DNA of 46,630 bases from an uncultured Phycisphaera sp. (GTDB taxonomy: Bacteria; Planctomycetota; Phycisphaerae; UBA1845): positions 1-46,630 of the forward strand of contig CAYQZH010000005.1 in NCBI GenBank assembly GCA_964421865.1, in the 5' to 3' direction. Position 1 is the first letter of the stretch; each line of letters starts with the position of its first letter. A program made the position numbers and the translations under genes. Under the pieces are notes generated by a model. The model had not been told where the DNA came from and searched no databases. It worked only from the letters and a program-made list of their open reading frames with translations. Below are positions 560 to 39,885 of the stretch, piece after piece.

Positions 560-740
560 AATGCCGCTGTACTACATCACATCCAAAAAAGCGTGTTTTT
601 GGACCAGAAAACGCGGTTTCAGGAGGGGTCACGGGTCGATGAATCGACCCAAGTAGTACCCAATCGACCCGTTATGTAGTACAAAGAACCTCTCAAACAA
701 TTTCCGAACATTCTGGCATCCTGCGATCATGGTCGCCCGC
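560..740 (+). other. Conserved cassette left arm (putative integrase arm-type sites)
   Basis: ACTACATCAC 571-580, AAGTAGT 651-657 and ATGTAGT 674-680; same boxes and spacing follow the other two tRNA halves. Confidence 0.75.
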
Positions 741-940
741 TTCTTGCTTGTCATGGGCCAGCCCAAGTTGCGCTTCGACACACGGCGAGGAGAGCATCCA
801 CGGAGCCGCGCAAGCGGTGACATCGCAAGCGGTTGCGATGACCTCGAAGCGTCCAAAGCGTTATTCGGGAGCAGGGGGGGCAAAACGTCGAACGCTCGTT
901 GCCCGTGACAGCTCTCCTCGGTGGGACGACGTCGCTTTGG

Positions 941-1030
941 CAAGCGCTGCCCCAAGTCACTTCGAGTTCGTGTTGTAAGGCCTGAACCAGCAACTGGTTT
1001 CGTAACATGTCCTGCGGTTTCATAAACCGC
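941..1030 (+). repeat. ~90-bp dispersed site, copy A (putative recombination site)
   Basis: Ungapped alignment to 12438-12527 and 19748-19837 (53/90 to the latter, counted by hand); ends in palindrome GCGGTTT-CAT-AAACCGC 1014-1030. Confidence 0.7.
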
Positions 1031-1710
1031 GGATTGTCGATCAGGATGTGCGCGCTGGCTGTTCGCGTTTTCCCGGCTAGACGAGCATTTTGTCAGGCTG
1101 ATGAAGGCACGCACGCGGGCCGTTTGGGGGGTTGAGTCTATCATGGTCCACCGGAGTAGGCGGCTGCCCTTCGCGTTGCTGCAAGCGCCGCCACAGGACG
1201 TCGAAATTGCCGCTGGCACCGCCGAGTGCTTTCTGTCATTCCGATCCGCAATTCGTCTGTCGGCGTGTCACCAGTCGCCATGTCGCCGCATGACCGGATC
1301 GCGGATCGTTTCGATTCGAGTTCGACCGCTGCGACCTGTGGCTCGGGTCGCGATCGGACCTCGCTCACCGGGATCGAACGCCGCGAGCCCGGCGACGGAC
1401 GACGGGGTAGGAAAAGGCGCTTGGAAAGGGCCGAAGGCACGATGGGGGTGCACCGCTGCACGGTCGCACTCTGCGGTGCGAGGCCCGAGTCGGCTACACT
1501 CAGTCGTGTAGCCCGGCCCGACCGACCGTCGGTGCGTTTATTCCTTCGTGGTGCAAGCGACAGTGTTCGCACTTTCCCAACAATGGGAAGGCCCCGTGTC
1601 CACCTCGCCGCGCTTCAATCACCCCGAGTGTTCGCGTCGGTCCTACGCAGACCAATGAAACCACCAGCCGTTCCTTAAGTAGTGCGGTGATGCGTCGGGG
1701 TCGTATCGGC

Positions 1711-4700
1711 CTATCGGCCGGTGAAGCTTGTTTGCAGAATCGCGATGTCGGCGAGGTCGACGTCGCCGTCCGTATCGAGGTCGGCGGCGACGATTCCTTC
1801 CTCATCGGGTACGAGGGTGCATCCGGCGGGAAGGCTCGCCGGATCGTACGGGAGGCCCGGGCCGGTCATGCAGTTCTCGATTAGAACCAAGTCATCGAGG
1901 TCAACATCGCCGTCGGTATCGAGGTCCGGCGAGGCCGTCGGAACGACCACGAGCGTGATGTCCATTGACGAGTAGACCACATCGAACCGAAGACCGGGAC
2001 CGATGTTCAGACCGACCACGCGGGAGAATCGCCCAATGCGTGAGCCGAAGGTCATGACTGTGAATGTTTGGCCCAGTGTCGGTGAGAAAGCAGGATCGAG
2101 CTCAAGTTGAAGCACCCCGTCGAGTTCAGCGGATCCGGTGATGTTCAGCACATCGTAGGCCGCGGCGGGTTCAGCACCATTCAGTTCTATCTCGAGTGCC
2201 GCCGATTGACGTTGCGTGTAGCTGCCCACGATACTCAGGATGCCGGCGCTTAGTCCGGGTCGGACTATGCCGCCGTTGTTCGACACGGAAACAGTTAGGG
2301 TCCCGGTTCCGGTCAGCACCCCCCCTTGCAGGTCCAGGCGCGCCGACCTTAGCTGTCCGCCATTCAGACGGGTCACGCCGGCATCCTGGGTATAGACGCG
2401 ATCCAGATACAACTGCTCCAAGGTTCCGGTTTGCAGTTCGACGGTTCCCGAGTTGTGAAACGCCACCTCGCATTGCAGAGTTCCCGCACCCCGTTTGAGA
2501 AAGGTCCCGGTGTTGGTGAATCGCGCGCTTCCTGACCCGCCAAACAAGCCGTCGCTTACGGCGTCAAACGTTCCAGCATTCTCAAACCCGCCCGTGCCGC
2601 TCATGTTGAGGGACGTGTTCTGCCCGGCGTATGACGCGGTCTGCAAACTTCGAACCGCGCGGCTGTCACGCAAACCGAGGGCCCCAGACATCGCAACGTC
2701 ATTCTCGAAGACCGTCCGACCAGCCCCGATCATCGTGGCGGCCGTCCACGTGGATGGTCCGCTCGCACGCACCTCATCCGCGCCCGAAAGGAAACCTCCG
2801 GTTTGATCCAGTTGACCGACCGTCACTGTCTGGCCGGTGTTAAAGTTCACCGTACCTCCCCTCAAACGGAACGTCTGCACGTCGATCGCCTCATCACAGT
2901 TCAAGTTGACCGTGCCGCCGCCAACTTCCAGCGAATCTCCCAGGCTCAACACTGTCGACGCCGGAGTGAAATTCATCGTGTTGCCGTTGAGGGTCGTCTG
3001 TCGGGCCACGTCGTAAATGCCGTTCACGTTGACAATGGACCCTGACTCCGTGGTGACGTTGCCCGCCCTGATGGTGGAGGCCGGATCGAAGTCGAAGGTC
3101 TCGCTAACAAAGTTGAGCGAGGCGACCTCATCTCCCTGGAAAACACCGGTATGTGGCGTACTCGTACCCCCGGAGAGTTTGAGGATACCGCGCACAATGT
3201 TTACGACGCCGTGGTTGTTGAACTTAACGCCGACGTTCATCGTGCCGGGGCCGAGCTTATTGAACGTGCCATAGTTATGGAACAGCCCGTTGCCGGACTG
3301 CAACAACGGACCGTCGGACTCTGCGTTGAAGATGCCCGTGTTGTTGAACTCGGACGTACCCGACATTGTCAACACGGCGTCCGCCCCGGTAAATGTTGCC
3401 GTCGCCGGATTCTCCAAGGTACGATCGTCGGCAAGCACACCGTGGCCGGTGATGGTCATCCCGCCTGCGGCGGTGATCTGACCGGGTCCGCGAATATACG
3501 CTCCCTGCCATCCGCCGGACCAAAGAAATGACTCACTCACATGGATGTCGTCACCGCCTTCGATTGCACCATACGACTGGGTGAGGTTACGAATGCTCAC
3601 AGGTTTGCCGGTGTTGAAGTACACGTCAGCCATGTAACCGTGTGTGTACGTATCCAGCACAATCGGTTCATCGTTGTTGAAATGGACCGTGACCGAGCTT
3701 CCTTGGTGCGCCACCGCAATGAGATCTCGTCCCAAACTTCGCAGACTTCCCGTCGTAGTAAAGGTGATGGTGCCGCCGGTCATCGTCGTGGTACCGGTCA
3801 CGTCGTAGTGGCCGTCGATGGTCGCCTCTCCGCCGCCCCAAGCGTTGAAGACAACGCTCTCAGCTTCCACGCGCGAGCCGGGCGAAAAGGAGTGTATTCC
3901 GCGACCGAATTCCACCACGGCACCCGGCGAGCCCAGGCAGCGGGCGGAATCCGAGTGCTCGCTGCCTCCTCGCAACACGACCCTGCCTCCGATAACGCTC
4001 AGGTCGCCGTGGTTGATAAAATCGACACTGATATCAAGCGTATCCGGACCGGTTTTGCTGACCGTGGCGTAATTGAAGAAACGCGGCGAACCGTTCCACC
4101 TCTCGATGAATCCACCGGTGGCCGCAAACACGTCCCAGTTGATGAAATAGGCATTGTCCAACATGCGCATCCACGGGAGCGCCCCACCAAAAGACGTCGG
4201 AGACTCGGCACTGATGGACCGCTGGTCATAGAGCGTAACGGCAGCATTATCAATCAGAAGTCCGCCATGGGTTTCAATCAGCCCGTCGCCGCGAAGGTCA
4301 GCCGCCTGTAGCGATAAGAGACCATCCACCTCCGTGCTCCCCGGACCGTCGAGTGTTGCATAGCTGATCGTGAAATTGCTCTCCATGCGCGACCGATCCG
4401 TGGTCCGAAGCGTGCCGCCCGAGAGCACAAACCGCTCGGCGGAGCGGATCCCGAGTACTTCCGAGCCGCCTTGGGAATGAGTCACGGTGGACACGGTCGG
4501 AACATCGATACAGATATGATCGGCCGGACCGGGAACGTCGGAATTGTCCCAGTTGATGGGCTGATGCCAGAAGCCGTCACTCCCAATCCACGAGACGAAG
4601 GTTCCGCCGTCGCACTCGTCGGGCACGCCGTTGAGGTCGCAGTCCTGGGAAACGCCCGCGATTTCGCAGTCGTCGGGTACTTCGTTGGCATTGCAATCGG

Positions 4701-6758
4701 CTGCAAACCCGCAGCCAGGGACGTTGCAGAACGCCCCGAGACTTCCGAAACAGTCCACTTCGCAAAGATCGACGATTCCATTGTCGTTGCACTCGATGAT
4801 TTCGTAGGGCCCGAACGAAGTCACTTCCTCCTGCCAGTTTCCGGAGCAGTCGCCCGCGCGGATGATGAAAAAGTGCCTTCCGAGTTCAAGTGGCAGACTG
4901 GTCAACGGCGTTCCGCTGAAACCCGGGTCGGCATTAAAGTCCGGGACGGTATTGGGGTCCGACGACCACTCGTAGCTGAAGATTTCCGCGCCGGAGCCCT
5001 CGTCCGCCGGTGCGGTCCAGACGACCACGATCTCCGGGCTCGTCCCGCCCACGCCAAAGGGATGCGTGGGGGATACGAGTTCTGTGACGCGAGAGGGGGG
5101 AGTCCCGTCCTGCCAAGTGTATTCCCACCTCACGTTGTTGGCCGTTCGCCAAAGAGCGTTTTCATGCTCCGGAAATCGCGCTCTGAAGGCGTTGATGAAT
5201 TGGAGCACTGTGATCGGTTGGTCATGCGTAACTACTTCGAAGATTTCGTCAACGCCAAGATCGAGGGCGTCCTTCGCGCAGACCGGCTGCCCATCGTCTA
5301 CACCGTTGTTGTCCTGGTCCTCCATCTCGTCTTCAATGTCTCGAAGCAGGGCCCCGATGAACCCTTCGGTCTTGAACGGATCAACCAGATCGGGGATCCC
5401 ATCATTGTCGAAGTCATCCGCGATCCCGTCGTTGTCCTGGTCACAAATCCCGGTTCGTTCCAGGCTTCGGCCGAAGAGCGAGGTAATCCCATAGTCAGCA
5501 GGATACGACCGTGTTACTACGTCGGCCAACCAGTTCGGCCATCCTTCGTTCCAGGCGTCATGGAAATTCTCCGGACACCACATGCAGTGTCCTGGATTGG
5601 GGCAGCCCGCGCCGCCGTCGCAAAAACCGTTGCAGTAATCGGGAACCTCAGTCTGCGAAAAGTTATGCAAGAAATGATGGCCATACTCATGGGTGATTGT
5701 ACTCTCCTGCCACTGCTTGGCCGAACTAAGGAAAATCTCGTCGTCCAGGTATTCTGCGTTGTTCCCGCCCCCGGCACTATCCTCCGGCCATTGAACGTCG
5801 ACCTCGGGTACGTCGATTCCGGTCCGCGTTTCGATAAAACGATGGGCCCGCATGATGCGATTGAAGATGTGCAGAGCGGGGTGGTCGCGGGAAGCGTTGG
5901 GGCTGAGTTCGCCGAAGTCGATCTCCGATCCGGTGAAGTTCGGGAAATACAGGTCGTCCTTGGTGTCCCAGCTATAGTCTTCCTCGAAAACGCCGAGCTT
6001 TGGACGTTGACGACGCCCGTATCGCACTCCCATCGGACGTAAATGTCCGGGTCGTCGCACCCGGTGATGTCCCAGTCATCCCAGTTGAGGGTCACGTCGA
6101 AATACCCGTCAGCATCAGTCCGTCCCGACCACATCTCCTCGTCGAAAAAGTCATCGTCGAGGTCCATGATCTGCACCCAGATGCCATCCACGCCCATCGT
6201 TTGCGCGGGGATGTCATTCACGCCGTCTCCGTCGAGGTCCCGCGCGATCCGGTTATAGATGATCCTTCCCTGGAAATGGATCGTGTTCCCTCCCGCAACA
6301 TGACCGTCGCCCGCGGAGATGCGAGCGCCCTGCCGGCTTTGCGCCGGGCGCGGCTTACCCACCTTCGCAAAATACCCTGGGCTAAGATCCAAACTTTTCG
6401 CGGTCATCCGTCCGTTGAAACGGACGCTTACGCGCAGGGGCTTCGAGGAGTCCCCGGGTCGGGCGCGGAACGGAACGTCAACGACCTCGCCCGAACGCAC
6501 CTCTTGGGGAGTTTGTAAACCGAGCGGCTGAAGGGTCCAACTGTCGCCTTCCAGGGCGATGAAGTCGACCGTCCCGTCTCGCAATACTTGCAATCGGATG
6601 ACGCCGTCGTATTCTCTACCGGACACCGCCGGGCGTGTGTCGGCGGGCATGTGTATCTTCATGGGCGGACCGACGTCCGCCCAAACCGTTGTGACGCTTG
6701 CCGCGAAGAGCGCGCCGCAGAGAAGGAGTCTCGCTCGCCGTCCCCGTACGCCTCTCAT
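1711..6758 (-). pseudogene. Large secreted HEXXH metalloprotease / beta-helix / dockerin-like protein (~1680 aa), split by a 1-bp frameshift near 5995 (pseudogene or sequencing error)
   Basis: Signal peptide and RBS at 6758. ORF 5517..6758 reads ...VVNVQSS and continues as GVFEEDYSW in ORF 1711..6060. Contains HEYGHHFLH, DCNxNxVPDxC repeats, N/G/T-rich passenger-like repeats and paired C-terminal DLDTDGDVDLxD motifs. Confidence 0.8.
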
Positions 6759-6919
6759 GTCACCTCTCCCCGCCGTCTCTCACACCGCCACCGATGGTAG
6801 TGCGGATTGTTTTGCCCGCGTAGGGCGGTGCCCATGACCAGCATACCACGCCGCAGTAGCGTTCAATGGTGAAGACCGGGTCGCGCCGGGTGCGCTGCTG
6901 ACGGGCATCGTGCCTCTCC

Positions 6920-8506
6920 CTAAGGACCGGTAAACGCGTGCTCGAAAGCCGCATAATCGAATAGATCCACGTCCCCGTCGTTGTCCACGTCGAAATCGAA
7001 CGCGCCTGCATCGCACTGCCCGACATCAAGAGAGACAAAGTATTCGGACTGGTGCACGTCGTCACAGTCGACGACGGATCGGTCCGTTACCAGCAGTCGA
7101 ATGGTGTAGCAGCAGGGGCGCAGGCCCCGCGTGTCCCACGTTCCCAGCAGGCCGTGGACAACTGGAGCGTTGCCGTGGGCGTCGGGAATGGGAACCCAGC
7201 CGTGCTCGTCGCCTCCCGTATACCAGAGCGACCACCCGGCAAGGTGTGCGTCCGTTGCCGTCCCGACGATGTCAACCAGGCCATTGACACAACCGCAGTT
7301 GGTCGGCGTTGTAATGACGGCGGTGGGCCAGGCGTTGTCAATCGTCACATCGCGCGTCACCGTGGCCGTGTGGTTACAGAAGTCCGTGCCCCGAATGCGA
7401 ACGCGGTAATCGCCATCCGGAACGGCGGCCGCCCCCACCGCCGTATTCCACGAGGCGAACGGATCGAACGTAACCCAAGGGGGGCTCACTGAGTTAACGG
7501 GCAGGAACGCCCCCCCGGCGGCCGGCTGGTAGTCCACCGTGAAGGTTCCCGAGCAAGAGTCCCAAACGGTGCCGTCAAAACAGACGGAGCCGCCTGCGAT
7601 CAACCCGTTCGTCGGTTGCCGGACAACAAGGCTATCGAACTGGGTGTCCACGAAGACCCGATTCCGGTCCTCCGTCGACACGCCACAGCCGTTGTAACTG
7701 GTCAGCTTGAGAATGTAGTCGTCCTGCACATTCGGCGGGTTCCAGGCCGCGAGCACGTTGTTGACGACCGCGGTGTCGTTGAGAGCGATCAGGTGGAACG
7801 GATCACTTCCGTCGTCGCGCTGATAATGCAGCGTGTACCCTCCGAACTCGCCGTCTACGTCCCGGGCCGTTCCGATGACGTTGGCGCTGGTCTCGCAGAT
7901 GCATGTCCTGTGGGCGGGTGTAGTGATCACGGCCTCGGGCGGCGTTGCGTCCGCTGTGAACGTAAGGTCGTCGATCAACTCGAACCGCTCCGCGCACAGC
8001 CCCCCGGCGCCGGCCTCGATCTCGATTCGGCGGAAGCCCGCGGCCCGCTCAATACGGACGAAGACAAGAACCCGCTCGACGAGGTCTCCGTTCACCGGCA
8101 CATTCCGAAGCCCGACGCGGACGTCGGCGGCGTCGTACCAGCGAACCTGAACCGTATCGGTGGAGTTGCACCCGACGCGGACGCCGAGGTTGAAGGTCAC
8201 CGCGGTCTGGTCGATGTCAAAGGCGAGCCGAAGAAACTCCGGGCTGAACTCGTTCAGACCGTCGCCCCGGGCGCTTAGACACTGCGGCTCTGAGGTCGTT
8301 CCACCCGAGGGGTTGTAAATGATCGGATTGACTCCGGAAGTGCCGTCGGGATCGCGTCCGCTGAATCGGACGCCGGCGTACTGGGTCGTGACCACCGTTC
8401 CGACGGGAAGACCGTCGAAGTCGATTGTGGGACATTGGCCCCACGCTTCAACCCCATAACCGACGATCACCGAGAGAACTCCTCCGCACTTGAATATGCC
8501 CTTCAT
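6920..8506 (-). CDS. Secreted protein with three Ig-like repeats and C-terminal dockerin-like EF-hand motif
   Basis: ATG 8506 with AGGAG RBS, signal peptide, repeated PxAVITTP...L..W.....Y.LRL modules, ends DVDNDGDVDLFDYAAFEHAFTGP. Confidence 0.85.
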   Translation of the reverse strand: MKGIFKCGGVLSVIVGYGVEAWGQCPTIDFDGLPVGTVVTTQYAGVRFSGRDPDGTSGVNPIIYNPSGGTTSEPQCLSARGDGLNEFSPEFLRLAFDIDQTAVTFNLGVRVGCNSTDTVQVRWYDAADVRVGLRNVPVNGDLVERVLVFVRIERAAGFRRIEIEAGAGGLCAERFELIDDLTFTADATPPEAVITTPAHRTCICETSANVIGTARDVDGEFGGYTLHYQRDDGSDPFHLIALNDTAVVNNVLAAWNPPNVQDDYILKLTSYNGCGVSTEDRNRVFVDTQFDSLVVRQPTNGLIAGGSVCFDGTVWDSCSGTFTVDYQPAAGGAFLPVNSVSPPWVTFDPFASWNTAVGAAAVPDGDYRVRIRGTDFCNHTATVTRDVTIDNAWPTAVITTPTNCGCVNGLVDIVGTATDAHLAGWSLWYTGGDEHGWVPIPDAHGNAPVVHGLLGTWDTRGLRPCCYTIRLLVTDRSVVDCDDVHQSEYFVSLDVGQCDAGAFDFDVDNDGDVDLFDYAAFEHAFTGP

Positions 8507-8628
8507 GGTGCCGAACTCCTGTTTGTACCCTACACCCAAGCCGCACCCCGCGGCCCGTTGGCTACTGCTAATAGGCGCGGGCTACGCGCCGTTGGACGGG
8601 ACCACCGCTTTTTTACAGGATCCCGGGC

Positions 8629-30700: not shown

Positions 30701-33460
30701 GACCGCGTTGGGGCGGAGGCGATTGTAGATGGCCGCTCGATCCGCCGCACCAAACTGTGGGTAATTCCCATTGGCGTTGGCGGCGGGATCATCGTTCAGG
30801 GGAGTGTCGGAAGACGCCGGTAATACGATCTCACGTCCGCGCAGAAGGGCCAGTTCCTCCTCGATAAGCGAGGTAATTCCCGGTAGTCCGGCGAATGCGA
30901 AGATGCCGGGAACCTGCTCCAGTGAAATGGAGTCCGGGGGTATCCCTTCCCCCACGGTCGGGTCCATGGCGTCGGCGAACGCCTCGTTGCCCAGGAGCAT
31001 CTCGAAAGCGGAGAGTTCGTTGAGAATCCTTTGCACCACGTCGATCGGGATGCAGGATGGATCCTTGATCAGTGTTCGAAGTCGCTCGGCCGGATCGCGT
31101 GTCGTCCCTGTTCCCGCCGGGGGAACGCAGCTTCCTCCCGGACAAGGGGTTCCCACACCACAGTTCAGGCCGTCTCGAGTTCCGCCCGCACACACGCCGT
31201 CGCCCGGAGTCTGCCCGGTCCCAGGTTTCCATGGACGCCCGTAGCGCTGGATCATTGTGCCGAATGTCGTCGGACTAATCGGGTCATCGCGCTCTAGGCG
31301 GAAGACCTCTGTCGCGGCCTTGTCTTGGTCCAAGAGCTCGGCCAGCGCGTCCTGTGCGTCGCACTCATCAGGCCGGCCGTTCCCATCATTGTCGCAACTG
31401 CTCGCGTCGCGAACGTCGCACTCGTCCGGGATGCCATTGTGGTTGCAGTCGATGTCGCAGGCGTCCGGAATATTGTTGTGGTTGCAGTCCGCGCCGACTG
31501 TCGGACGAGGTCCGCCCGCCGCCACGGTCAGGGGATTGGATCCGACCGCGTCGGTGAGGATGTTCCCGCTCGTCTCGTCCATCCGCCACGACGCTGCCAG
31601 TCCGGCCGTGTCCGCCGGGTTTGAGGTGAACATCGCCCCGTGGATTTCATCCCTCGTGCGCGCGATGTTCCAGACTCTCACATCGGCGATGTAACCGTCG
31701 AATGGGCGATCCGGGGACGTTCCTTCCCCTTGGCCGATCCGCAGCCGACCGGCCAAGCCGCCCGCAGGGGCGCCCGTCACCGTGAACGTCAGTGGCTCGC
31801 GGTTATCAACTTGAACGACATATTCGATCGACGACGGCGAGAGTGTCTTCCGAGTCACAGCGACGTGATACCACAAACCCGTATGTAGGTTCGTATCTGC
31901 AACCACCGTGGCGTCGCTGAGATCGGCACGCTCATGAGTGATGCGCAGATCGCCATTCGCGTCCACCTCGATGGAATAGAGAATGTTGGACGGCAGACTC
32001 TCCCCCGCATCGCCCATCGTGATCACCGACTGGGTGACGCCGAGTCGATGGAGGAGGATCCAGGCTTCAAGCGTCAGATCGCCGGTGATCCGCAGGTCCG
32101 CCGTGGGAGTGGCGAGTTCGACAAGATCATCCGCGCCGTCGAGCTCCAGAATTGTCCGCGTCGTGCGGGTCGACGGGATCGGCGCTTCCAACCCGTCCCA
32201 GCGGCCGTTGCCGTTGCAATCGGGCAGCGTAAAGAACCAGCCCTCGTTGTTCCCGGCAGGGTTCCGTCCCCCTCCCGCGATGGCCAGTCCGTCCGTGGAG
32301 ACGGCGTTGGCCGATCGTAGCGTCCAGCCCTCGAGCCCGGTCGCACCATAGTCCTGTACGAGCAATTCACGCAGATTGCGCATTCCCAGGTCGGCGCGCC
32401 ACAGGAAGGCCTCGTCTCCCGCCGCAGACGTACCCGCACCAACGACGATCGAGCCGTCACCCGAAATGCCGAGCGCCGTGGCAAAGGTGCTCCCGCCCGG
32501 CAGATCGCCAAGCGCGATCTGAGAGCCCGGTCCCGGATTCCCGAATTGGGTTCCGGGGATCCACATGAACGCTTCTCGACCCGCCGCACTCGTACCGTAG
32601 CCAACGGCCCTTCCCCCGTTCGTCACCGCGAACATCTGACTGCCCACGATTCCGCCGGGCAGATCACCCGTCCCTTGAGGGAGGCATGGAGGCCTAAGAC
32701 AGATCGTGTTGGGCCGGGGAAAAACGTACCCATCTTGATTGAGCGAAGAACCTGAATTCTGGTCGCTGCCGGCGACGAAGAAACCACTTGGAGACACAGT
32801 GTTAATGGTGATGTTGGAGGTAATGCCGTTTAGGTCCGGCAGGGCGGTGCTTGCGCCCGATTGCTGCGTCCATCGGAACCCGCCGGTGAACCCGCCCGCT
32901 GCGTTGAATTCGCCAACGACGGTCATGCCGTCGTCTGAAATCGAGGTCGCACGCACGGCAAGCGTCCCGGAAGGCCCGGGGATGATCTGCGCCGGGACCA
33001 GCTCATTTCCCGACTGGACGGCCCGCATCGCCCCGCCGGAGGCGACGCCGCACACGAACGTCTGCGTGCCGACCAACGCGACGTCCGTGGCTGTGCCGAA
33101 GGCCAGCGGCGGTTGCGCGTTGATGATACGGTGAAGGCTTCCATCCGCATACTTGCACGGCTCGTTGCGGAGTGAGGACGCTTCTGATTCCGCGGATCGG
33201 GACTCCCCCACGACCACGGTCACGCCGTTGACGTGAGCCACGCCTTTCGCGTCGCTGCCAATACGTCCTCCTTCCAGGTCGCCAATGCCCTGGAAGCACA
33301 CCTGGAGCAAAGGATCACATCCTTCCCCCGCTTTCGCCCCTCGCGCCCCGACGAGGACGGCCCCGACGATCACGCAAGTCAGCGTCAAGTCCCATCTGCG
33401 CCTATTGGCACGATTGCTTGGATGCCTACCGATCGTTCGAATGTGTTGCATCTGGATCAT
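27773..33460 (-). CDS. Large secreted protein: HAF-type repeats, LamG-like domain, Cys/Asp repeats, long helical C-terminal region (putative TcA-like)
   Basis: GDLPGG...A..ISxDGxxVVG repeats; LTLEAWI/WYHVAV/FDGYIADVRVWN LamG motifs; coiled-coil region then FDLAGRYVMLAARAFAYE. Start uncertain (33511/33460/33451). Confidence 0.8.
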   Translation of the reverse strand: MIQMQHIRTIGRHPSNRANRRRWDLTLTCVIVGAVLVGARGAKAGEGCDPLLQVCFQGIGDLEGGRIGSDAKGVAHVNGVTVVVGESRSAESEASSLRNEPCKYADGSLHRIINAQPPLAFGTATDVALVGTQTFVCGVASGGAMRAVQSGNELVPAQIIPGPSGTLAVRATSISDDGMTVVGEFNAAGGFTGGFRWTQQSGASTALPDLNGITSNITINTVSPSGFFVAGSDQNSGSSLNQDGYVFPRPNTICLRPPCLPQGTGDLPGGIVGSQMFAVTNGGRAVGYGTSAAGREAFMWIPGTQFGNPGPGSQIALGDLPGGSTFATALGISGDGSIVVGAGTSAAGDEAFLWRADLGMRNLRELLVQDYGATGLEGWTLRSANAVSTDGLAIAGGGRNPAGNNEGWFFTLPDCNGNGRWDGLEAPIPSTRTTRTILELDGADDLVELATPTADLRITGDLTLEAWILLHRLGVTQSVITMGDAGESLPSNILYSIEVDANGDLRITHERADLSDATVVADTNLHTGLWYHVAVTRKTLSPSSIEYVVQVDNREPLTFTVTGAPAGGLAGRLRIGQGEGTSPDRPFDGYIADVRVWNIARTRDEIHGAMFTSNPADTAGLAASWRMDETSGNILTDAVGSNPLTVAAGGPRPTVGADCNHNNIPDACDIDCNHNGIPDECDVRDASSCDNDGNGRPDECDAQDALAELLDQDKAATEVFRLERDDPISPTTFGTMIQRYGRPWKPGTGQTPGDGVCAGGTRDGLNCGVGTPCPGGSCVPPAGTGTTRDPAERLRTLIKDPSCIPIDVVQRILNELSAFEMLLGNEAFADAMDPTVGEGIPPDSISLEQVPGIFAFAGLPGITSLIEEELALLRGREIVLPASSDTPLNDDPAANANGNYPQFGAADRAAIYNRLRPNAVDAIGSVGYRSNYGFSNTPSNATASEAFPQGHGDAYGYYLTATTTYLDAFGAAKDEPVPPGFSQNMVESLRTPEGGADCGDFDCESIVDDEGITHAVGFHSVRNMAAAMAAKARAANRIVDLTFRRDYREDADTRLTDTDTARDWGTADWARRGGVGAYLDWAVLNHLLPVPQAGTGDAITEIHRRRMEEVRILASAVDEMQERVDAAGSGLNPLGLVANVVPFRIIQPGQLLDFLEGGASSGQSHYGIVRSAAIEAIKNARGILKRANLASNRLRGNEETFTDFENQVRATDVGFNDRLIEIFGLPSPSDRADNDSEDNDGDGVQLIGGLNDPGDDFIEAGCDGECAGSPDLVNFLVDSETLDALGWVDRAAVGQVQLAMFELRAATLRAQIAEQALSNLEALIQDKAENVALVRDEAIEQLQIQASACSERFSVIDRKKELAEARENRGIFSRVAGLISQVAVCAASNAVGCEPAINSGLGLLGEALGNEFSGSSASSEIGDQFDIEREELRINCWQTASLTRISNDQQIRALEIELEDLIRRTPQGILELAVAETQARQAFAVVRKGFQEGKRLLDERDRNRRVQSDKLQQFRFRDMAFRTFRNQALEQYGAFFDLAGRYVMLAARAFAYEYNERDEVSAQMQRLHHERLLGTESAADQGLESIIARLDQKRQESDFVARLQKLSLFDHGGDEFSLRKNLLGLAINPSEDTDQQQLEKNKAFRAFLESHVVQDLLDVPAFRQFASFDSDRDAGPALVLSIPTEVAGRTFFGQRRGTTFGAPANFDTCSNPKVFEFAILLEGVDNPGAIGVDSQLIFAHFLPVGSSMLRSPEGGNCSLRAVRTWAVVDQRIPGVSAVYRDAGGAILDSFDIPRLATSPELDVINRFPVTQAQIRNTEDPVFQDDLAGWSAWNTQWLLAIPGRQFADPNDDAAVVRRKLLILIFDADENGNPRNPNANLGIDDIKLRIKAYGKPS

Positions 33461-33494
33461 CCCGTCGTCCGGCTTGGCCGTCCCGTCGCATCCA

Positions 33495-35150
33495 TTACTG
33501 CGAACCCGCATCGTCGCTCAACCGCTCCAACCGGAAGTTCCCGCGCACCGTGATCGGCAGCGCCGTGACCCCGGTGATCACTTCGGTGTATTGTCCGGTC
33601 AGTCGATGGGGACCAAAGGTTCCATCCAGGCCTGCCAACTCGTCCGACAATGAGTCTGCTTGGTTTTCGATTTTGATTGTGATCTCACGAGTGATGTCAT
33701 ATCCCTTACGGTGTTCAGGATGGTATCGGTGGCGATAGGGGTTCAACGGATCATTCGGTTGGATATGAAGGGTACCCCGTAGCGTTCCACTCGACCCGAA
33801 TGGGTCCAGCACGTCGGACGCATCCACCGTTAAGTTCACTGGGCGGTCCAGGAGGATGGAGTTGAAGCTCCGAGTGATGGCGCGACCGTCGCGGAACCCC
33901 AGGATGTTGACCGAGTCCAGAAGTCGCGGCCCGGCTGCGCCGGACGAAGGATCCGGTAGATCCAAGATTAGCGTCATCGTCAATGGCGGGGCTTCCGCCT
34001 GCTGGAGCGGGAGATCTTGTACGATGGGGTGGGTGCTGACCTGAGTGAGGGTGGCCCGTCCAATCCAACGACCGAAGATCGGTTCGACGGCGACCTCCGA
34101 AGCGATGACGCTCCGAGAACCCTGCTGATCGGACACATCGATGACCGCCGGGAACGTCTGATTCGCCCCCGCCACGCTGCGCGATCGCGCCGCCGCCTCC
34201 AGCCCCGATCGCCGCGCTCGAAGTTGCACTTCAACCCGCGTCGCACCGGCGGGAACGACCACGTCGAGTCCGTCGGCCAACGAGTGCCAGACCGCTACAC
34301 CGGGTTTCGTCGCATCACGATACTCGAGCCACCGGGCGGCTTCTTCGACTCCGGAACATTCCCCGTCCGCCGAGAGAACCGCGCAGGGACGCGCCTCCAA
34401 CCTCACAGTCCTGGCGCTTTGCGACGACGGCACCTCGAGGCTGAGCGTTCGCAGTGCCGTGGTCCGACCAAAGGACAGTCCATTGATGTCAGCCGAGGCG
34501 TCCAGCGGACCCAAGTAATCGAAGTCCTGTACGACATTCAGCCAATAGGCGGCATTCGGCTGGATCGGGTCCGTGATGGATCGCCTTAAAATGCTGTCCC
34601 CTAAGGCGAAGATGTCATGCTTAACTGGCGAACCCGACGCACGGATCTTGCCCCTCACGCTGGGATGTGAGAAAAACTCTTCGAACGACAACGGGCCCGA
34701 GGTTGGATCCGACAACGCCCCGAAGGGGTTGCTGACCCGGCTCGTGAATCGCGTGCTTCGGATAAGGGGCCGACCCTCCAGGCGCAACCGTCCCGCAGAG
34801 CGCATTCTAATCAGATAGGCTCGGTGTCCCTGCAACGTGCGCAAGGTCGTCAACGCAGGCGGGACATTCTTGTCATGAAAAAGCCACCGCCCCGGTGGTT
34901 GGCCGGGCGAGAGGTCGGAAACCGTGCGGTTCGCGTCGAACGTCCAAATGGCCTGGTAGTCCAGCGGCGTGGATTGCCGGGCAAGAATCTGTTCCAGATC
35001 GTTCGGCTCCGGCTCGAGATTCACCCAAACGGCGTTCCAACCGCTTTGGAGCTGAATCTCCTCGGTTACCAGCTGCGCCTCGGCGATCCCTGAAACACAG
35101 ACCCACGCCGCCACGCAGGCCATCGACGGGATTCGCATTCCGCACCTCAT
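33495..35150 (-). CDS. Secreted hypothetical protein, first gene of RHS/Tc-like operon
   Basis: Signal peptide ending IAEAQ, LQSGWNAVWVNLEP N-motif, NPYRHRYHPEH C-motif. Confidence 0.8.
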   Translation of the reverse strand: MRCGMRIPSMACVAAWVCVSGIAEAQLVTEEIQLQSGWNAVWVNLEPEPNDLEQILARQSTPLDYQAIWTFDANRTVSDLSPGQPPGRWLFHDKNVPPALTTLRTLQGHRAYLIRMRSAGRLRLEGRPLIRSTRFTSRVSNPFGALSDPTSGPLSFEEFFSHPSVRGKIRASGSPVKHDIFALGDSILRRSITDPIQPNAAYWLNVVQDFDYLGPLDASADINGLSFGRTTALRTLSLEVPSSQSARTVRLEARPCAVLSADGECSGVEEAARWLEYRDATKPGVAVWHSLADGLDVVVPAGATRVEVQLRARRSGLEAAARSRSVAGANQTFPAVIDVSDQQGSRSVIASEVAVEPIFGRWIGRATLTQVSTHPIVQDLPLQQAEAPPLTMTLILDLPDPSSGAAGPRLLDSVNILGFRDGRAITRSFNSILLDRPVNLTVDASDVLDPFGSSGTLRGTLHIQPNDPLNPYRHRYHPEHRKGYDITREITIKIENQADSLSDELAGLDGTFGPHRLTGQYTEVITGVTALPITVRGNFRLERLSDDAGSQ

Positions 35151-35260
35151 CTGTTGAGCCCCGGCCACCCATGGTCGCGGCGGAACGCCGCTTCGGAGGT
35201 CGGAGTCACCGTTCGTTCCCTCAGTGGCCGGTCATCGTCGAGCTCCCCGAACCCCTTACA

Positions 35261-35290
35261 AATGCGTAAATCGCCCGCCCGGGGCGTCAC
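35261..35290 (-). promoter_or_regulatory. Putative ECF promoter GTGACG-N18-CGCATT driving the cargo operon
   Basis: Identical boxes and spacing to 35381-35410 on the opposite strand. Confidence 0.65.
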
Positions 35291-35380
35291 CCAATCGAAG
35301 AAAATCGTTAGAATGTTGCTGCGAGCCTGAAGGGCTGGGTACGATGGACCGGCGAAACAACGACGTTTCCCTTGTCGCTC

Positions 35381-35410
35381 GTGACGCTTGTTCCGGTGTT
35401 TTTTCGCATT
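35381..35410 (+). promoter_or_regulatory. Putative autoregulatory ECF promoter GTGACG-N18-CGCATT
   Basis: Directly upstream of the ECF gene; twin of 35261-35290. Confidence 0.65.
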
Positions 35411-35459
35411 AGGTCGTTAGATGGGTTCGATGAGGGATCAGGAGTCAAGGCGGCCGAAC

Positions 35460-36047
35460 ATGGACGAAGCAGGCGGTCCGGTGACGCGATTGCTCGCCGA
35501 CGCGGCGGCGGGGAGACCCGACGCCGCCCGGGACCTTCTGCCGCTCGTCTACCGGTCCCTTCGCGATCTGGCCAGTCGGCAATTCGCTTCCGAGCGAACC
35601 GAGCACACGTTGCAGGCGACCGCCCTGGTGCACGAGGCCTATCTGCGACTGGTCGGGACGAGTGACCTCGGATGGGACAGCCGCGCCCACTTCTACGGCG
35701 CCGCCGCGGAGGCCATGCGCCGCATCCTGATCGAACACGCTCGGCGAGTCGGGGCCAAAAAGCGCGGCGGGGACCGCAAACGCGAGATCGCTTGCGTCGC
35801 CGATCTGGCTCACGAAGATACCGTCAGCGACGCGCCGGAAATTGACGCGGCCATCGAGGCCCTTCGGGCGGATGATCCGCGGGCAGCGAGCGTTATCCAC
35901 CTGCGGTTTTACACCGGCCTGTCGATCGACGAGACCGCTGCGGCGCTGAACATCGCCCCGAGCACCGTGGAGCGCGAGTGGCGCTATGCCCGGGCCTGGC
36001 TCCTGCGGCACCTGCAGAACGGCGATCGCGCGGAGACGCGACCTTGA
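35460..36047 (+). CDS. ECF-type sigma factor (TIGR02999-like planctomycete family)
   Basis: VTRLL, LLPLVY, HTLQATALVHEAYLRL, AAAEAMRRILI, KRGG, W.YARAWL. Alternative starts 35421/35430. Confidence 0.93.
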   Translation: MDEAGGPVTRLLADAAAGRPDAARDLLPLVYRSLRDLASRQFASERTEHTLQATALVHEAYLRLVGTSDLGWDSRAHFYGAAAEAMRRILIEHARRVGAKKRGGDRKREIACVADLAHEDTVSDAPEIDAAIEALRADDPRAASVIHLRFYTGLSIDETAAALNIAPSTVEREWRYARAWLLRHLQNGDRAETRP

Positions 36048-39000
36048 GTCCGGCGGATCGTGAACGCGTCAAAGGATTGCTCGCTCACGCCGCAGGTCTG
36101 CCTCCTCAGCAGCGCAGGGCGTTCATCGAATCCGCGGCCGCCGACCTCCCTGAAATCGCTACGGAAGCTCTCGACCTACTATCTACTCTCGACGACTCCG
36201 GCTTCATGAGCAAGCCCACCGGCGCGGGCTTTTCGGCAGAATCGGTTCCAACGACGGTTCCCCGCGAGCAACCCGGCGCCCGGGTCGGACGATACAAGTT
36301 GCTGCAACTCATCGGGGAAGGTGGATTCGGCTCGGTGTTCATGGCCGAGCAGACCGAGCCCGTCCATCGCCGTGTGGCCCTGAAGATCATCAAGGCGGGC
36401 ATGGACACCAAGCAGGTGATTGCCCGCTTCGAAGCCGAGCGCCAGGCTCTCGCGATGATGGATCACTCCAACATCGCTCGGGTCCTGGATGCCGGAGCCA
36501 CGGAGAGCGGCCGCCCGTACTTCGTGATGGAGCTGGTTCGCGGTGAGCCGATGACTCGGTACTGCGATCAAGAGCGGTTGCCGATTCACCGGCGACTCGA
36601 ATTGTTCCGCGACGTTTGCAACGCCGTTCAACACGCTCATCAGAAGGGGGTCATCCACCGTGACCTCAAGCCTTCCAATGTGCTCGTGACCGTCGCTGAC
36701 GGGGAACCGCTCCCCAAGGTGATCGACTTCGGCATCGCCAAGGCCGTTTCCGGCCGTCTGACCGACCGGACGCTTTTCACCGAGATGCATCAACTGATCG
36801 GCACGCCGGAGTACATGAGTCCCGAACAAGCCGAAGTGTCGGGCGTCGACATCGACACCCGCAGCGACATTTATTCGTTAGGAGTGATGCTTTACGAACT
36901 GTTGGTCGGGAGCACGCCGATCGATGGTGAACGACTGCGCTCCACGCCGCTCGCGGAGATCCAGCGGCTCATCTGTGAGGAAGAACCGCAAAGACCGAGC
37001 CTGCGCCTTGCAACGCTGGAATCATCGTCCGGGGCGCAGCTCTGGACGCCGCCGCAGGCGGCCGGCGATTCCGCCGAATCCTCCGCGATTGAGATCGCGC
37101 GGCGACGGCAGTCGGAGCCCATGCCTTTGACCCGCACCCTACGCGGCGACCTCGACTGGATCGTCATGAAGTGCCTGGAGAAGGATCGATCGCGCCGCTA
37201 TGCGACCGCCAGCGCCCTGGCAGAGGATGTGGCGCGCTATCTGTCGGACCAGCCGGTCCTCGCCACGCCCCCCAGCGCGCGCTACAAACTTCGCAAGTTC
37301 GTACACCGGAATCGAACCTTGGTGCTCGCCGGCGCCGCTGTCGCCGTTGTCCTTGTGTTGGGCGTCATCGGAACCACCCTCGGACTCGTTTGGGCCATGC
37401 GCGAACGGGGTCGGACCCACGAACAGAGGATCATCGCCGAGGCGAACGCCATCACGGCCCGCAGGGAGGCCGAGAGAGCCAACCGCGAGGCGGATCAGGC
37501 TCACGCTGTGGCGGATTTTCAAGCGCAGATGTTTGCGGACGTTAATCCGCAGACCATGGGGATCAAGTTGCGAGCGGATCTGTTGACCAAGGCGCGGGCG
37601 GCAGCGAAGCGATCGGGACGCAACACGGAAGAAATCGACACGCACGTCGAGGAACTCGCAAAGCTCATCGCCGGTATCGATCTCACCGGGATGGCCCTAA
37701 CGACACTCGACGAGAACGTTTTCCAAAGGGCCTTGGCCGTCATTGAAAGACAGTTCGCCGACCAGCCCTTAGTCAAGGCGCGGTTGCTGCAGACCATGGC
37801 CAGCACACTCCGCGAACTGGGTTTGCTCGATGCCGCGATTCGGCCGCAGGAACAGGCACTGGAGATCCGCCGCCAGGTGATTGGCAGCGAACACCCCGAC
37901 GCGCTCGCCTCGATCAGCGAGATGGGCCGACTGCGCCTTGCTCAGGGCAAGCTGACGGACGCTGAGCCGTACCTCCGCGAGGCCGTGCAGGGTCTCAGAC
38001 ATGTGCTGGGCGACGAGCATCCCGACACACTCAGATCGATCGTCAATCTCGGCCATCTGCTCCACGACCAGGGCAAGCTGGCGGAGGCCGAAGCTTTCTA
38101 TCGCGAAGCGATGGAGGAACTCCGCCGCGTGCTGGGTGATGACCACCCCGACACCCTCATTTCGATCGCAATCCTAGGCCAACTGCTTCAGGAAGAGAAT
38201 AGGCTCTCAGAAGCCGAACCGTACTTATATGAGGCGCTGGACAAGCGCCGCCGCGTGCTGGGCGACGAGCACCGTGACACGCTTGAGTCCATGAACAACG
38301 TGGCTATTCTGCTCCTCGCTCAGGGCAAGCTCAAAGAAGCCGAAGCGTACTTCCGCGAGTCCCTGGAGAAACATCGCCGCGTACTGGGCGACGAGCACCC
38401 CAATACGCTCAGCGCAATCAGCAACATGGGCATTGTGCTACGCGCCCAGGGCAGGCTTGCGGAAGTTGAACCGTATTACCACGAGGCGTTAGAGAAACGG
38501 CGCCGCCTGTTGGGCGACGAGCACCCCGACACGCTTACGTCGATCCACAACATGGGCTTCCTGCTCCAGGCGCAGGGCAAGCTCGCGGAGGCCGAGCCGT
38601 ATTGCCGCGAAGCGATGGAAAAGTGGCGCCGGCTGCTCGGCGACGAACACCCCGACACTCTGATAGCGATCAATAATATGGGCGTTGTGCTCCTGACCCA
38701 AGGGAGGCTGTCCGAAGCAGAGCCCTTCTGCCGCGAGGCGATGGAGAAACGCCGCCGTGTGCGCGGCGAAGAGCACTTGGACACGCTCATTTCGATTAGT
38801 AACATGGGGAATCTTCTTCAGGCACAAAGCAAACCCGCGGAGGCCATTGGACTAATGGCCCCGGTAGAGCCTGCGGCTCGCCAGGCATTCGCCGGCAATC
38901 CGGTGCGCCTGGGCCGCTTCCTGACCGCACTCGGACGTGCGCGCGTGTCTACCAAAGAGTTCGACGCCGCAGTGGCCAACCTGAGCGAGGCCCATGCCAT

Positions 39001-39166
39001 CTTGAGCGAGGCAAAGGGCGCAACGGACCGGGACCGCATTGACGTTTTGAGCGGCCTGGTGAAACTCTACGAGGTTTGGCATTCCGCCGAGCCGGATCGA
39101 GGCTACGACACCAAGATGGCCGAATGGCGCGTCAAGCTCATCGAATCGCAAGCAGGGCAAGACTAG
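36044..39166 (+). CDS. Membrane Ser/Thr protein kinase with TPR repeats
   Basis: TTG start overlapping ECF stop (TTGA); GEGGFG, HRDLKPSN, DFG, SPE; one TM segment; many 42-aa LGDEHPDTL repeats. Confidence 0.95.
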   Translation: MSPADRERVKGLLAHAAGLPPQQRRAFIESAAADLPEIATEALDLLSTLDDSGFMSKPTGAGFSAESVPTTVPREQPGARVGRYKLLQLIGEGGFGSVFMAEQTEPVHRRVALKIIKAGMDTKQVIARFEAERQALAMMDHSNIARVLDAGATESGRPYFVMELVRGEPMTRYCDQERLPIHRRLELFRDVCNAVQHAHQKGVIHRDLKPSNVLVTVADGEPLPKVIDFGIAKAVSGRLTDRTLFTEMHQLIGTPEYMSPEQAEVSGVDIDTRSDIYSLGVMLYELLVGSTPIDGERLRSTPLAEIQRLICEEEPQRPSLRLATLESSSGAQLWTPPQAAGDSAESSAIEIARRRQSEPMPLTRTLRGDLDWIVMKCLEKDRSRRYATASALAEDVARYLSDQPVLATPPSARYKLRKFVHRNRTLVLAGAAVAVVLVLGVIGTTLGLVWAMRERGRTHEQRIIAEANAITARREAERANREADQAHAVADFQAQMFADVNPQTMGIKLRADLLTKARAAAKRSGRNTEEIDTHVEELAKLIAGIDLTGMALTTLDENVFQRALAVIERQFADQPLVKARLLQTMASTLRELGLLDAAIRPQEQALEIRRQVIGSEHPDALASISEMGRLRLAQGKLTDAEPYLREAVQGLRHVLGDEHPDTLRSIVNLGHLLHDQGKLAEAEAFYREAMEELRRVLGDDHPDTLISIAILGQLLQEENRLSEAEPYLYEALDKRRRVLGDEHRDTLESMNNVAILLLAQGKLKEAEAYFRESLEKHRRVLGDEHPNTLSAISNMGIVLRAQGRLAEVEPYYHEALEKRRRLLGDEHPDTLTSIHNMGFLLQAQGKLAEAEPYCREAMEKWRRLLGDEHPDTLIAINNMGVVLLTQGRLSEAEPFCREAMEKRRRVRGEEHLDTLISISNMGNLLQAQSKPAEAIGLMAPVEPAARQAFAGNPVRLGRFLTALGRARVSTKEFDAAVANLSEAHAILSEAKGATDRDRIDVLSGLVKLYEVWHSAEPDRGYDTKMAEWRVKLIESQAGQD

Positions 39167-39339
39167 CCTGAGACTGTGACCCAAGGCCCTGTACCTCCTG
39201 AGACTTGAGTTTCGATACTCGCCAGGGGCGTTCTCCCGCCGAATCTCGAATTGCTCGGCCTCGATCGGACGCGGCCGAGTCGCTGCTGGTGTCGGCCCAG
39301 CCACACGTCTCCGACAATTTCTTCCCTCCCGCCCGGTAA

Positions 39340-39468
39340 AGGGGGCGGACCCTCGAATCGCTGATTCAACTCCATGAAGCGCGCCACGCGGACATGCCCG
39401 TCAACGGCTTCGATGCAAAGGCCACCGAATGGCGAGCCCGCCTCGCGCAACGCAGGTCAGACCCTTAA
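39340..39468 (+). pseudogene. Relic 3' end of another kinase-TPR gene
   Basis: Translates TLESLIQLHEARHADMPVNGFDAKATEWRARLAQRRSDP*, matching the C-termini of the neighbouring kinases (VLSGLVKLYEVWHSAEPDRGYDTKMAEWRVKL). Confidence 0.75.
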
Positions 39469-39672
39469 CCATGCGCCGGTTCCGCAATCAGATTACGTTC
39501 CGAAGCGCATCGCGAGGCCTATCCGGAGATGGCGTTTGGAGCTCGTGCGTGACTTGTTGGACACCGCAATTCAGGTATCTTCAGCTGTTATGTAGTATGG
39601 AGGTGGGTTGGACGATGCGGCGCAGAAGGACGCCGGGAGGATACGTAAACTACCGTAAATTAAAAGGTTAAT

Positions 39673-39708
39673 GCGGGCGTAGCTCAATGGTAGAGCATCA
39701 GCCTTCCA
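39673..39708 (+). repeat. tRNA-Gly 5'-half copy 3
   Basis: 36/36 identical to 45444-45479, then a 1-nt insertion relative to copy 2. Confidence 0.95.
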
Positions 39709-39885
39709 GAGATAACCGAGCACTACATCACGGGTCGAAAAACGGCCTTGGCGCTGTCGAAATCGCGGTTTTTGGGGATTGATCCGGCTCGATGGTTCGA
39801 CCCAAGTAGTATCAGTTCGACCGGAAATGTAGTGCGAGAAATTTTCGCGGAATGGCATCGGAAACCGCGGTCAGGTTGGTATCCG
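39709..39885 (+). other. Cassette 3 left arm
   Basis: ACTACATCAC 39722-39731, AAGTAGT 39804-39810, ATGTAGT 39827-39833; clearly similar to 20099-20280. Confidence 0.75.

Follow-up and report, generated by a model that had tools for sequence, protein, structure and literature searches.

The 46,630-bp stretch of DNA analysed here (the window) is an entire contig (G000:C5) of a metagenome-assembled genome (MAG) of an uncultured sediment bacterium, Phycisphaera sp. (G000; 4.26 Mb in 408 contigs, 63% G+C, assembly completeness 89.55%) and contains a tandem array of three cassettes, A, B and C, of 19.5, 19.6 and 5.7 kb, at a tRNA-Gly(TCC) gene. The ends of these cassettes bear A(A/T)GTAGT boxes in a fixed geometry, which, with a probability of about three in four, are arm-type recognition sites of a lambda-like integrase, here named Int5, within an attP-like module of approximately 350 bp. 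The module itself appears to be a feature of an integrative-element family of Phycisphaerae. Cassettes A to C are best described as non-autonomous elements, resembling CIMEs (cis-mobilizable elements), or as fossil elements, because an integrase is absent from them and searches of the assembly detected no Int5; any movement would depend on Int5 provided in trans.

The first 36 nt of the intact tRNA gene recur at positions 523, 20061 and 39673, with a single mismatch, located in copy 1. All three 5' halves lie upstream of the intact tDNA in the same orientation, and at all three junctions the identity to tRNA-Gly(TCC) extends over 36-38 nt and ends in the anticodon loop (Table 1). The tRNA was the sole match of an Rfam scan of the window. 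In each module, a P arm (about 150 bp) and a P' arm (about 165 bp) enclose the 5' part of the tRNA gene as far as the anticodon loop, and both arms and the core are kept at each cassette end. The first 160 bp or so of the three cassettes are 73-83% alike, and the cargo DNA is unrelated between cassettes. The intact gene would represent an attR-type junction (P arm, core and host 3' half) whose 5' half was brought in by cassette C. Copy 1 fits an outer, attL-type boundary on the host side, since no boxes are located upstream of it: the earlier note, written from this DNA alone, had seen no box in the 70 bp preceding copy 1, and in fact the whole of positions 1-570 is box-free. At position 528, corresponding to tRNA position 6, copy 1 has a G in place of the C of the functional gene; this G would mispair with position 67 of the present 3' half in the acceptor stem, which fits the oldest, unselected fragment.

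The motif A(A/T)GTAGT occurs 18 times in the window, against 1.55 ± 1.18 expected occurrences, and none of 100 shuffles reached this number. Fourteen of the 18 matches are found at the four tRNA-Gly(TCC) junctions, in the geometry listed in Table 1, and the remaining four (at 1677, 5231, 7713 and 44289) look like background. The density in the contig (0.39 per kb) compares with 0.087 per kb genome-wide, where the motif is 4.5 times rarer, and the three occurrences of AAGTAGT-N14-18-ATGTAGT in the 4.26-Mb genome are all located in the window. The positions given in the earlier note for the inverted-box sequence ACTACATCAC (571, 20109 and 39722) and for the AAGTAGT/ATGTAGT pairs (651/674, 20191/20214 and 39804/39827, exactly 23 bp apart in each case) were confirmed, as was the identical distance of 83 bp between the boxes at 39590 and 45361 and the tRNA sequences starting at 39673 and 45444. 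Its list of right-end heptamers needs one correction: those at 19988, 20040, 39590, 45361 and 45387 are exact, but the one at 45410 is ATGTAGC, a variant matching in six of seven positions. Each P arm of the window therefore carries between one and three direct boxes. The DNA between the boxes, which had been described as diverged, nonetheless retains an (A/T)TCGACC element, and a second motif, GGTCGAT, had been overlooked; it lies upstream of the direct boxes in cassettes A and B and, as the variant GCTCGAT, in cassette C, and its inverse, ATCGACC, directly precedes the direct boxes in the arms of the window.

Table 1. Coordinates of the tRNA sequences, arms, cargo and downstream integrase gene in the window.
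Feature	Position	Strand	Remarks
tRNA 5' half, copy 1 (displaced)	523..559	+	Ends within anticodon loop; G for C at tRNA position 6
P' (left) arm, cassette A	560..680	+	Inverted box 571-577; GGTCGAT 634-640; ATCGACC 643-649; AAGTAGT 651-657; ATCGACC 663-669; ATGTAGT 674-680
Cargo, cassette A	681..19987		Giant secreted proteins (dockerin, Ig-like matches); ECF-type sigma factor 8773-9372; Ser/Thr kinase with TPR repeats 9365-11944
P (right) arm, cassette A	19988..20060	+	AAGTAGT 19988-19994; ATGTAGT 20040-20046, 21 nt before tRNA start; then AAAACCGCGTTT
tRNA 5' half, copy 2	20061..20098	+	A/B junction; attP-like: P arm of A, core, P' arm of B
P' arm, cassette B	20099..20220	+	Inverted box 20109-20115; GGTCGAT 20174-20180; AAGTAGT 20191-20197; ATGTAGT 20214-20220
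Cargo, cassette B	20221..39589		2180-aa SpvB/TcdB-mid/FG-GAP/RHS protein 21234-27776 (minus); 1912-aa LamG protein 27773-33511 (minus)
Cargo, cassette B, further genes			ECF sigma factor 35421-36047; kinase with TPR repeats 35978-39166
P arm, cassette B	39590..39672	+	Sole box ATGTAGT 39590-39596, 83 bp before tRNA start
tRNA 5' half, copy 3	39673..39708	+	Junction of cassettes B and C
P' arm, cassette C	39709..39833	+	Inverted box 39722-39728; GCTCGAT 39787-39793; AAGTAGT 39804-39810; ATGTAGT 39827-39833
Cargo, cassette C	39834..45289		ECF sigma factor 41903-42703; kinase 42475-44280; separate TPR open reading frame 44359-45000; 479-aa open reading frame of unknown kind 40358-41797 (minus)
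P arm, cassette C	45290..45443	+	Boxes 45361-45367, 45387-45393 and 45410-45416 (ATGTAGC), 83, 57 and 34 bp before tRNA start
Intact tRNA-Gly(TCC)	45444..45515	+	ARAGORN; Rfam RF00005, 73.5 bits
Tyrosine integrase gene (P0001 family), 5' part	45635..46630	+	Cut by contig end; N-terminal three quarters

The same arms were found in related Phycisphaerae. Paired boxes with a 16-nt gap are also present in the genomes G093 (twice), G071, G080 and G083, and a scan of about 186,000 species' genomes added two further MAG contigs with the pattern. When any gap of 14-18 nt was allowed, the pattern matched 13 times read forward and 13 times read backwards, so that only the 16-nt class stands out. In the relatives, the distance from the start of a tRNA-Gly(CCC) 5' half to the box pair is 128 nt; this isoacceptor differs from that of the window. 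The box geometry is kept at two tRNA-Gly isoacceptors and in several genera. An alignment across genomes, the check which the earlier note had proposed, was made with 12 arms and showed the boxes to be conserved above the flanking DNA (conservation 0.91 for the boxes, 0.95 for GGTCGAT, 0.64 for other arm columns and 0.47 for the 60 columns following the last box), and among random triples of 7-column windows only 1 in 20000 reached the value of the boxes. Between genomes, the homology of the right ends is limited to the last 150 bp or so; over this length the P arm of cassette C is homologous to an arm on contig G093:C102. An AWGTAGT box is absent upstream of the outermost copies in the window (523), in G093 (27181) and in the loci L083 and L097, which fits a host-side boundary at these copies.

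A set of junctions independent of the boxes was obtained by searching the 101 genomes of the family for a tRNA 5' half that is not followed by the 3' half. This pattern had 21 matches in 15 of the 101 genomes and, after two variant intact tRNAs had been dropped, yielded 19 junctions, three of which are those of the window. At 14 of the 19, the layout seen in the window is present, its inverted box lying 12-13 nt past CCA and its two direct boxes 23 bp apart, with all three boxes sharing one GTNG core: GTAGT at eight junctions, GTAGA at three, GTTG at two and GTCG at one. The inverted box changes along with the direct boxes (ACTAC, TCTAC, ACAAC and ACGAC, respectively). On contig G080:C32 one element has GTAGA boxes in its P' arm as well as in its P arm and the next element has a GTAGT arm, and in G090 the P arm linked to Int5 (C260) and the P' arm at a 5'-half junction (C37) are both GTTGT, which indicates that the box type belongs to the element and not to the junction. 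The boxes of the P arms are all direct repeats and follow two recurring layouts. The first has one box at -44 and one at -21 relative to the tRNA, with AAAACCGCGTTT after them; the second, with three boxes at -83, -57 and -34, is found in cassette C of the window, G093:C102, G080:C149 and G083:C49.

The lead to a candidate cognate integrase was a small open reading frame (ORF) located upstream of the intact tRNA-Gly(CCC) gene in G093 and G083. Int5 is a divergent tyrosine integrase family of about 410-430 aa with members in 21 of the 101 genomes, and in 9 of 11 loci its gene is divergent from a tRNA-Gly gene (TCC, CCC or GCC). The interval between the Int5 start and the tRNA contains a TAYAAT element, two boxes 23 bp apart and AAAACCGCGTTT, the sequence that also follows the P-arm box of cassette A. 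A wider set comprised 52 Int5 N-termini for which upstream DNA was present; of these, 35 face a tRNA-Gly gene, five another tRNA and 12 none that was found, and boxes of the form ..GT[AT]G. are placed exactly at -44 and -21 in 21 of 34 Int5 loci adjoining tRNA-Gly. Two Int5-bearing elements in tandem were found on G041:C9, with a junction anatomy as in the window. The residues W-R-x-L before the GWH motif of Int5 are present in all seven loci with GTAGA boxes versus none of 14 with GTAGT or GTTG boxes, which is suggestive of the box type tracking the type of Int5 protein.

An AlphaFold2 model of Int5 built with 39 sequences (pLDDT 82.8) consists of three strands (residues 12-15, 21-27 and 34-38) and a helix (44-61), a disordered linker, a helical domain and a catalytic domain. 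Among its Foldseek matches, full-length lambda Int (1z1b_B, E = 3e-7, 392 columns) ranked first, ahead of Xer, Cre and Tn1549 integrases. Int5 is thus predicted to have a lambda-Int-like fold with an N-terminal domain of the arm-binding type. At E <= 1e-10, 267 database relatives of Int5 were found, mostly without a Pfam call and, where named, annotated as site-specific integrase or hypothetical protein. An hhalign comparison with a canonical integrase gave a weak match of 57 columns. In an alignment of Int5 proteins (A4; residues ~247-254 of its first sequence), an invariant G-x-G-x-G-x-x-D occupies the place where canonical recombinases have G-L-R-x-x-E; from this motif and the 57-column match, Int5 would have a glycine in place of the first catalytic arginine, and the K, R-H, H and Y positions further along the protein seem to be present. 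In G093:C20 (L090, 120-371, minus strand) and G083:C66 (L093, 1583-1870), short ORFs of about 60-84 aa, 64% alike, correspond to the N-terminal domain of Int5 only and occupy the normal position of Int5 beside an intact tRNA-Gly(CCC) gene; they may be either decayed integrases or stand-alone arm-binding proteins.

From these data we propose a mechanism in which the elements would recombine in the anticodon loop of tRNA-Gly, with the crossover in the 7-nt loop. By analogy with lambda Int, the N-domain of Int5 would bind the boxes and its other domains (core-binding and catalytic) would act on the core, the anticodon stem-loop. As the elements would bring both the tRNA 5' half and a P arm with a promoter, every insertion would rebuild the tRNA gene and push the previous 5' half upstream, and repeated insertion would have built the array of the window, with cassette A as the oldest and cassette C as the newest member. 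In autonomous relatives, Int5 is encoded divergently from tRNA-Gly, with two boxes between its gene and the tRNA. The motif GGTCGAT/ATCGACC is probably bound by a second factor, since it is as conserved as the boxes. The earlier note had proposed arm-binding sites of a lambda-like heterobivalent integrase, and this is supported on comparative grounds, by conservation, geometry, co-variation of the box cores and linkage to Int5. As to the selection on the sites that the note had also proposed, their conservation in this genome may reflect recent ancestry instead of current use, because no such integrase was found in the cassettes or in the assembly.

Several observations weigh against the assignment of the boxes to Int5. 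Seven of the 12 aligned arms had been found with patterns that contain two boxes, which makes the conservation statistic partly circular, and the equal conservation of GGTCGAT means that conservation alone does not single out the element bound by the integrase. Five of the 19 box-independent junctions are without the full three-box pattern, with one degenerate or mixed box each, and the P arm of cassette B keeps a single box (-83). The association between Int5 protein type and box type follows clades and could be due to shared ancestry. PF00589 scores Int5 at 21.2 bits, below the cut-off of 27.1, with no match for one of two members, and an Int5 profile searched against PDB sequences returned nothing meaningful. 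Int5 was found in G000 neither with an N-terminal query nor by tblastn with two full-length Int5 proteins (E <= 1e-3), the assembly being 89.55% complete, and a remnant of Int5 in the window was not detected by tblastn even with the limit relaxed to E <= 10. Arrays terminating in a -83/-57/-34 arm occur in four genomes, which hold only Int5 stubs or none, the three besides G000 having stubs only, in frames of 100-170 aa. Finally, long stretches of cassettes B and C are present without differences in Logan contigs from four runs of two studies, but these contigs stop at the repeated 36-nt core (39679 and 45473) and include no attB or circle junction. The joints listed in these contigs connect kinase/TPR paralogues with short sides and are not att sites; the public contigs provide no evidence for or against excision.

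Among the other explanations considered, it is unlikely, though by no means negligible, that the boxes are bound by an accessory protein, such as an excisionase (directionality factor) or a host nucleoid protein, and that the integrase contacts only the core. The equal conservation of GGTCGAT/ATCGACC makes more than one arm-binding protein probable, and AAAACGCGGTTTT-like palindromes recur in the arms. On the other hand, the box type switches with the clade of the adjoining Int5, as seen from the W-R-x-L residues, Int5 is predicted to have an N-domain of the arm-binding type, and the existence of four box types in a single bacterial family would not be accounted for by a host factor. Nor was an element-encoded candidate that could co-vary with the boxes seen: in tblastx comparisons of the 1.3 kb inside each cassette end, no conserved small (excisionase-like) gene was found beside the left or right arms, the only similarities being TPR/C-terminal repeats and the arms. 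Much less credible is a role of the boxes as transcription signals, either as promoter or operator of the rebuilt tRNA or for cassette genes transcribed with the ECF sigma factor of the cassette itself. In favour of such a role, a promoter has to be supplied by any element that replaces the 5' half of a tRNA gene, two boxes in the P arm of cassette C are overlapped by the promoter-like sequence TCGAAA-18-GATAAT (45382-45411), the 16-nt gap of the paired boxes resembles a -35/-10 spacing, and at Int5 loci the boxes are in the int-tRNA intergenic region, downstream of TAYAAT, where binding of Int5 could also regulate transcription. However, the same boxes are present in the P' arm with nothing conserved after them, and, adjoining the core, in inverted orientation; promoters do not take the form of direct repeats; boxes are also present in cassettes that have no ECF sigma factor (a histidine-kinase cassette, G080:C149); and a promoter would not be expected to show three boxes that co-vary across the two arms.

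We give equally little credence to the idea that the integrase encoded downstream of the tRNA (P0001 family; Table 1) recognises the boxes and moves the cassettes, which would make the locus an integron-like platform with a resident integrase. This gene is the sole integrase at the locus, and its family uses the same anticodon stem-loop: tRNA 3' halves starting at positions 20-29 are followed by P0001-family members, and a tRNA-Gly(TCC) 3' half is present on G000:C196. Yet P0001 relatives, which occur in 66 of the 101 genomes, immediately follow tRNAs of many kinds, in the same orientation (24 of 29 loci; 13 of 13 larger loci), and among these 24 tRNAs only one, a tRNA-Gly(CCC), has at least two boxes upstream. 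Moreover, the arms of P0001 elements bear a different motif at both ends, the palindrome CCGGGTA(G/A)-N2-CTACCCG(G), and box arrays also exist where the downstream gene encodes an unrelated, convergent integrase (G080:C149). The least probable alternative, to which we assign almost no weight, is a tandem segmental duplication of the tRNA region with boxes that were inherited and have no function. It would account for the mutual homology of the arms (73-83%), but not for the unrelated cargo between them, the precise end of the identity in the anticodon loop, the presence of the same arms around different cargo at another isoacceptor and in other genera, or the conservation of the boxes far above neighbouring arm columns. 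Recognition of the boxes by Int5 is the reading followed below.

The P0001 gene appears to belong to a separate, conventional element that carries a tRNA 3' half, and not to the cassettes. Its longest frame begins at 45563, and the likely start is a GTG at 45635, following GGAGG. The palindrome CCGGGTAGGACTACCCGG at 45595-45612 represents the end motif of P0001 elements in the window, and the same motif precedes the displaced tRNA-Gly(TCC) 3' half on G000:C196 (reverse strand, ~720-770), which is followed by another P0001-type N-terminus. In G083, tRNA-Gly 3' halves starting at positions 27-29 are each followed by a P0001-type integrase. On this evidence, stacked elements flank tRNA-Gly on both sides and seem to share one anticodon loop. 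Searches for partial tRNA copies within ±20 kb of P0001-family integrases at 13 loci (blastn-short, E < 0.05) found none. Two further loci were noted on the 3' side of tRNA-Gly(CCC) genes. Locus L138 (G046:C2) has two AGTTGTGCAA repeats and one AAATCGCGTTTTTT element downstream of the intact gene, and box-like motifs are therefore also present in arms on the 3' side of the tRNA. On G080:C149 (L079, 10288-11652), the convergent integrase downstream of the tRNA is a canonical PF00589 member (E = 7e-32), with three GTGGGTCAG repeats between it and the tRNA gene, and is a third kind of element at tRNA-Gly.

In phage lambda, the attP site contains the arm-type sites P1, P2 and P'1-3 for Int, and arm-type sites and three-domain integrases are textbook knowledge. 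As in lambda attP, a short motif distinct from the core is repeated in both arms, within a whole site of about 350 bp here, and as in lambda Int the Int5 model has separate N-terminal (three strands plus helix), core-binding and catalytic domains. In contrast to lambda, the anticodon stem-loop of tRNA-Gly serves as the core and the 5' half of this gene is part of the element, the box core varies between element lineages, the cassettes are without an int gene, and Int5 is too divergent for the Pfam cut-off or a PDB sequence search. Integron cassettes are mostly single promoterless genes that end in attC and are located next to intI and attI. The array shares with integrons a row of integrase-less units, each ending in a recombination site, beside a fixed site with an adjoining integrase gene. 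It differs in that the units are 5.7-19.6 kb long and multigenic with their own regulators (sigma factor and kinase), in that the sites are double-stranded attP-like modules with arms (no attC search was made), and in that the neighbouring integrase belongs to an ordinary tRNA-island family with an arm motif of its own.

The array also resembles the tRNA-associated islands collected by Islander (PMC4383910), which are defined by an intact tDNA with displaced fragments in the same orientation and an anticodon-centred crossover, upstream 5' fragments being accepted. In that collection, only 159 of 3919 islands have a 5' fragment and only four arrays comprise three or more islands. Islander requires an integrase in every island, so that its filter would reject cassettes A to C, none of which has an integrase; the elements described here differ from most islands in carrying the tRNA 5' half. 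CIMEs related to ICESt1, as described in PMC5704250, keep attL and attR, have no integration genes and accumulate in tandem at a tRNA gene by repeated site-specific insertion. Likewise, the cassettes keep attL and attR and have no integration or transfer genes detected by Pfam. Compared with these CIMEs, no relics of conjugation or relaxase genes were seen among the cassette genes, the tRNA is targeted on its 5' side, and the integrase-less -83/-57/-34 arm type recurs in three genera with different cargo; these arms look more like a lineage than the outcome of independent decay. A functional neighbour of the same type is absent from the window, and Int5 stubs are located at the equivalent place in G093:C20 and G083:C66. 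The literature matches listed in our searches include no account of such elements in Phycisphaerae. Among the less usual features of the system are the 5'-half strategy, the recurrence of an integrase-less arm lineage across genera, the sharing of one anticodon loop by two integrase families from opposite sides, and a natural series of box specificities.

A more far-reaching reading, which we regard as rather doubtful, takes the arms with boxes at -83, -57 and -34 for a successful integrase-less lineage made up of nothing but attP, that is, a site of about 350 bp enclosing cargo of any kind, be it giant surface or RHS-type proteins accompanied by an ECF sigma factor and a kinase of their own, or histidine kinases. 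Such a lineage would have spread between Phycisphaerae genera by borrowing Int5 from transient helpers, tRNA-Gly would serve as a two-sided capture platform, and GTAGT, GTAGA, GTTG and GTCG would constitute a specificity code of the Int5 N-domain. If this is true, the two sides of one anticodon loop are used by different families, Int5 elements stacking 5' of it and a second integrase family 3' of it. With respect to the assignment of the boxes to Int5, the analysis provides a testable definition of a recombination site (core, arms and box code) for an uncharacterised tyrosine integrase family of Planctomycetota, a phylum with few genetic tools, and an Int5/attP pair directed to a conserved tRNA-Gly gene could be of use as a tool for integration. 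How DNA is read by arm-binding domains could be studied in the natural experiment that the four co-varying box types provide. In addition, large accessory blocks, such as RHS/Tc-like and sigma-kinase modules, become mappable as discrete insertions without an integrase, which island finders that demand an integrase would miss.

The cargo of all three cassettes includes an ECF-type (extracytoplasmic function) sigma factor and a Ser/Thr kinase with TPR repeats, and in our overview of the Pfam results very large secreted proteins were counted among the cargo of each cassette. No integrase, relaxase or conjugation genes were detected by Pfam in the 24 of 27 cassette ORFs that were scanned. In cassette B, the gene of the LamG protein overlaps the start of the gene of the 2180-aa RHS protein, and the region 21234-33511 has the appearance of an environmental bacterium's Tc/RHS-type toxin or surface module. 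The kinase of cassette C ends at 44280 and its TPR repeats are in a separate ORF, as opposed to the single kinase-TPR gene of cassettes A and B; this is possibly a broken gene.

In a comparison with four genomes of the same genus, positions 1-522 of the window had no match. The genome G092 was considered as an empty site and rejected: the region upstream of its tRNA-Gly(TCC) matches other G000 contigs (C91 and C278), pointing to a rearranged neighbourhood, and G092 also has a displaced tRNA 5' half on C286. In the locus L057 (G092:C117), two stretches of 55-93 nt at 4529-4603 and 5838-5940 match at least six G000 contigs at 84-98% identity and are either a small dispersed repeat or a conserved coding motif. 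A contig of a Lacipirellulaceae MAG, from another class of Planctomycetota (L088, ~1985-2060 of the reversed locus), contains the boxes AAGTAGT, AAGTAGT and ATGTAGT with ATCGACCC-type prefixes; no tRNA half was found upstream of them and no integrase nearby in the contig. Finally, internal repeats were observed in two genes of the window, at 17157-18979 within the ORF 15931-19563 of cassette A, where units offset by ~740 nt show ~80% identity, and at 37854-38845 in the TPR region of the cassette B kinase.

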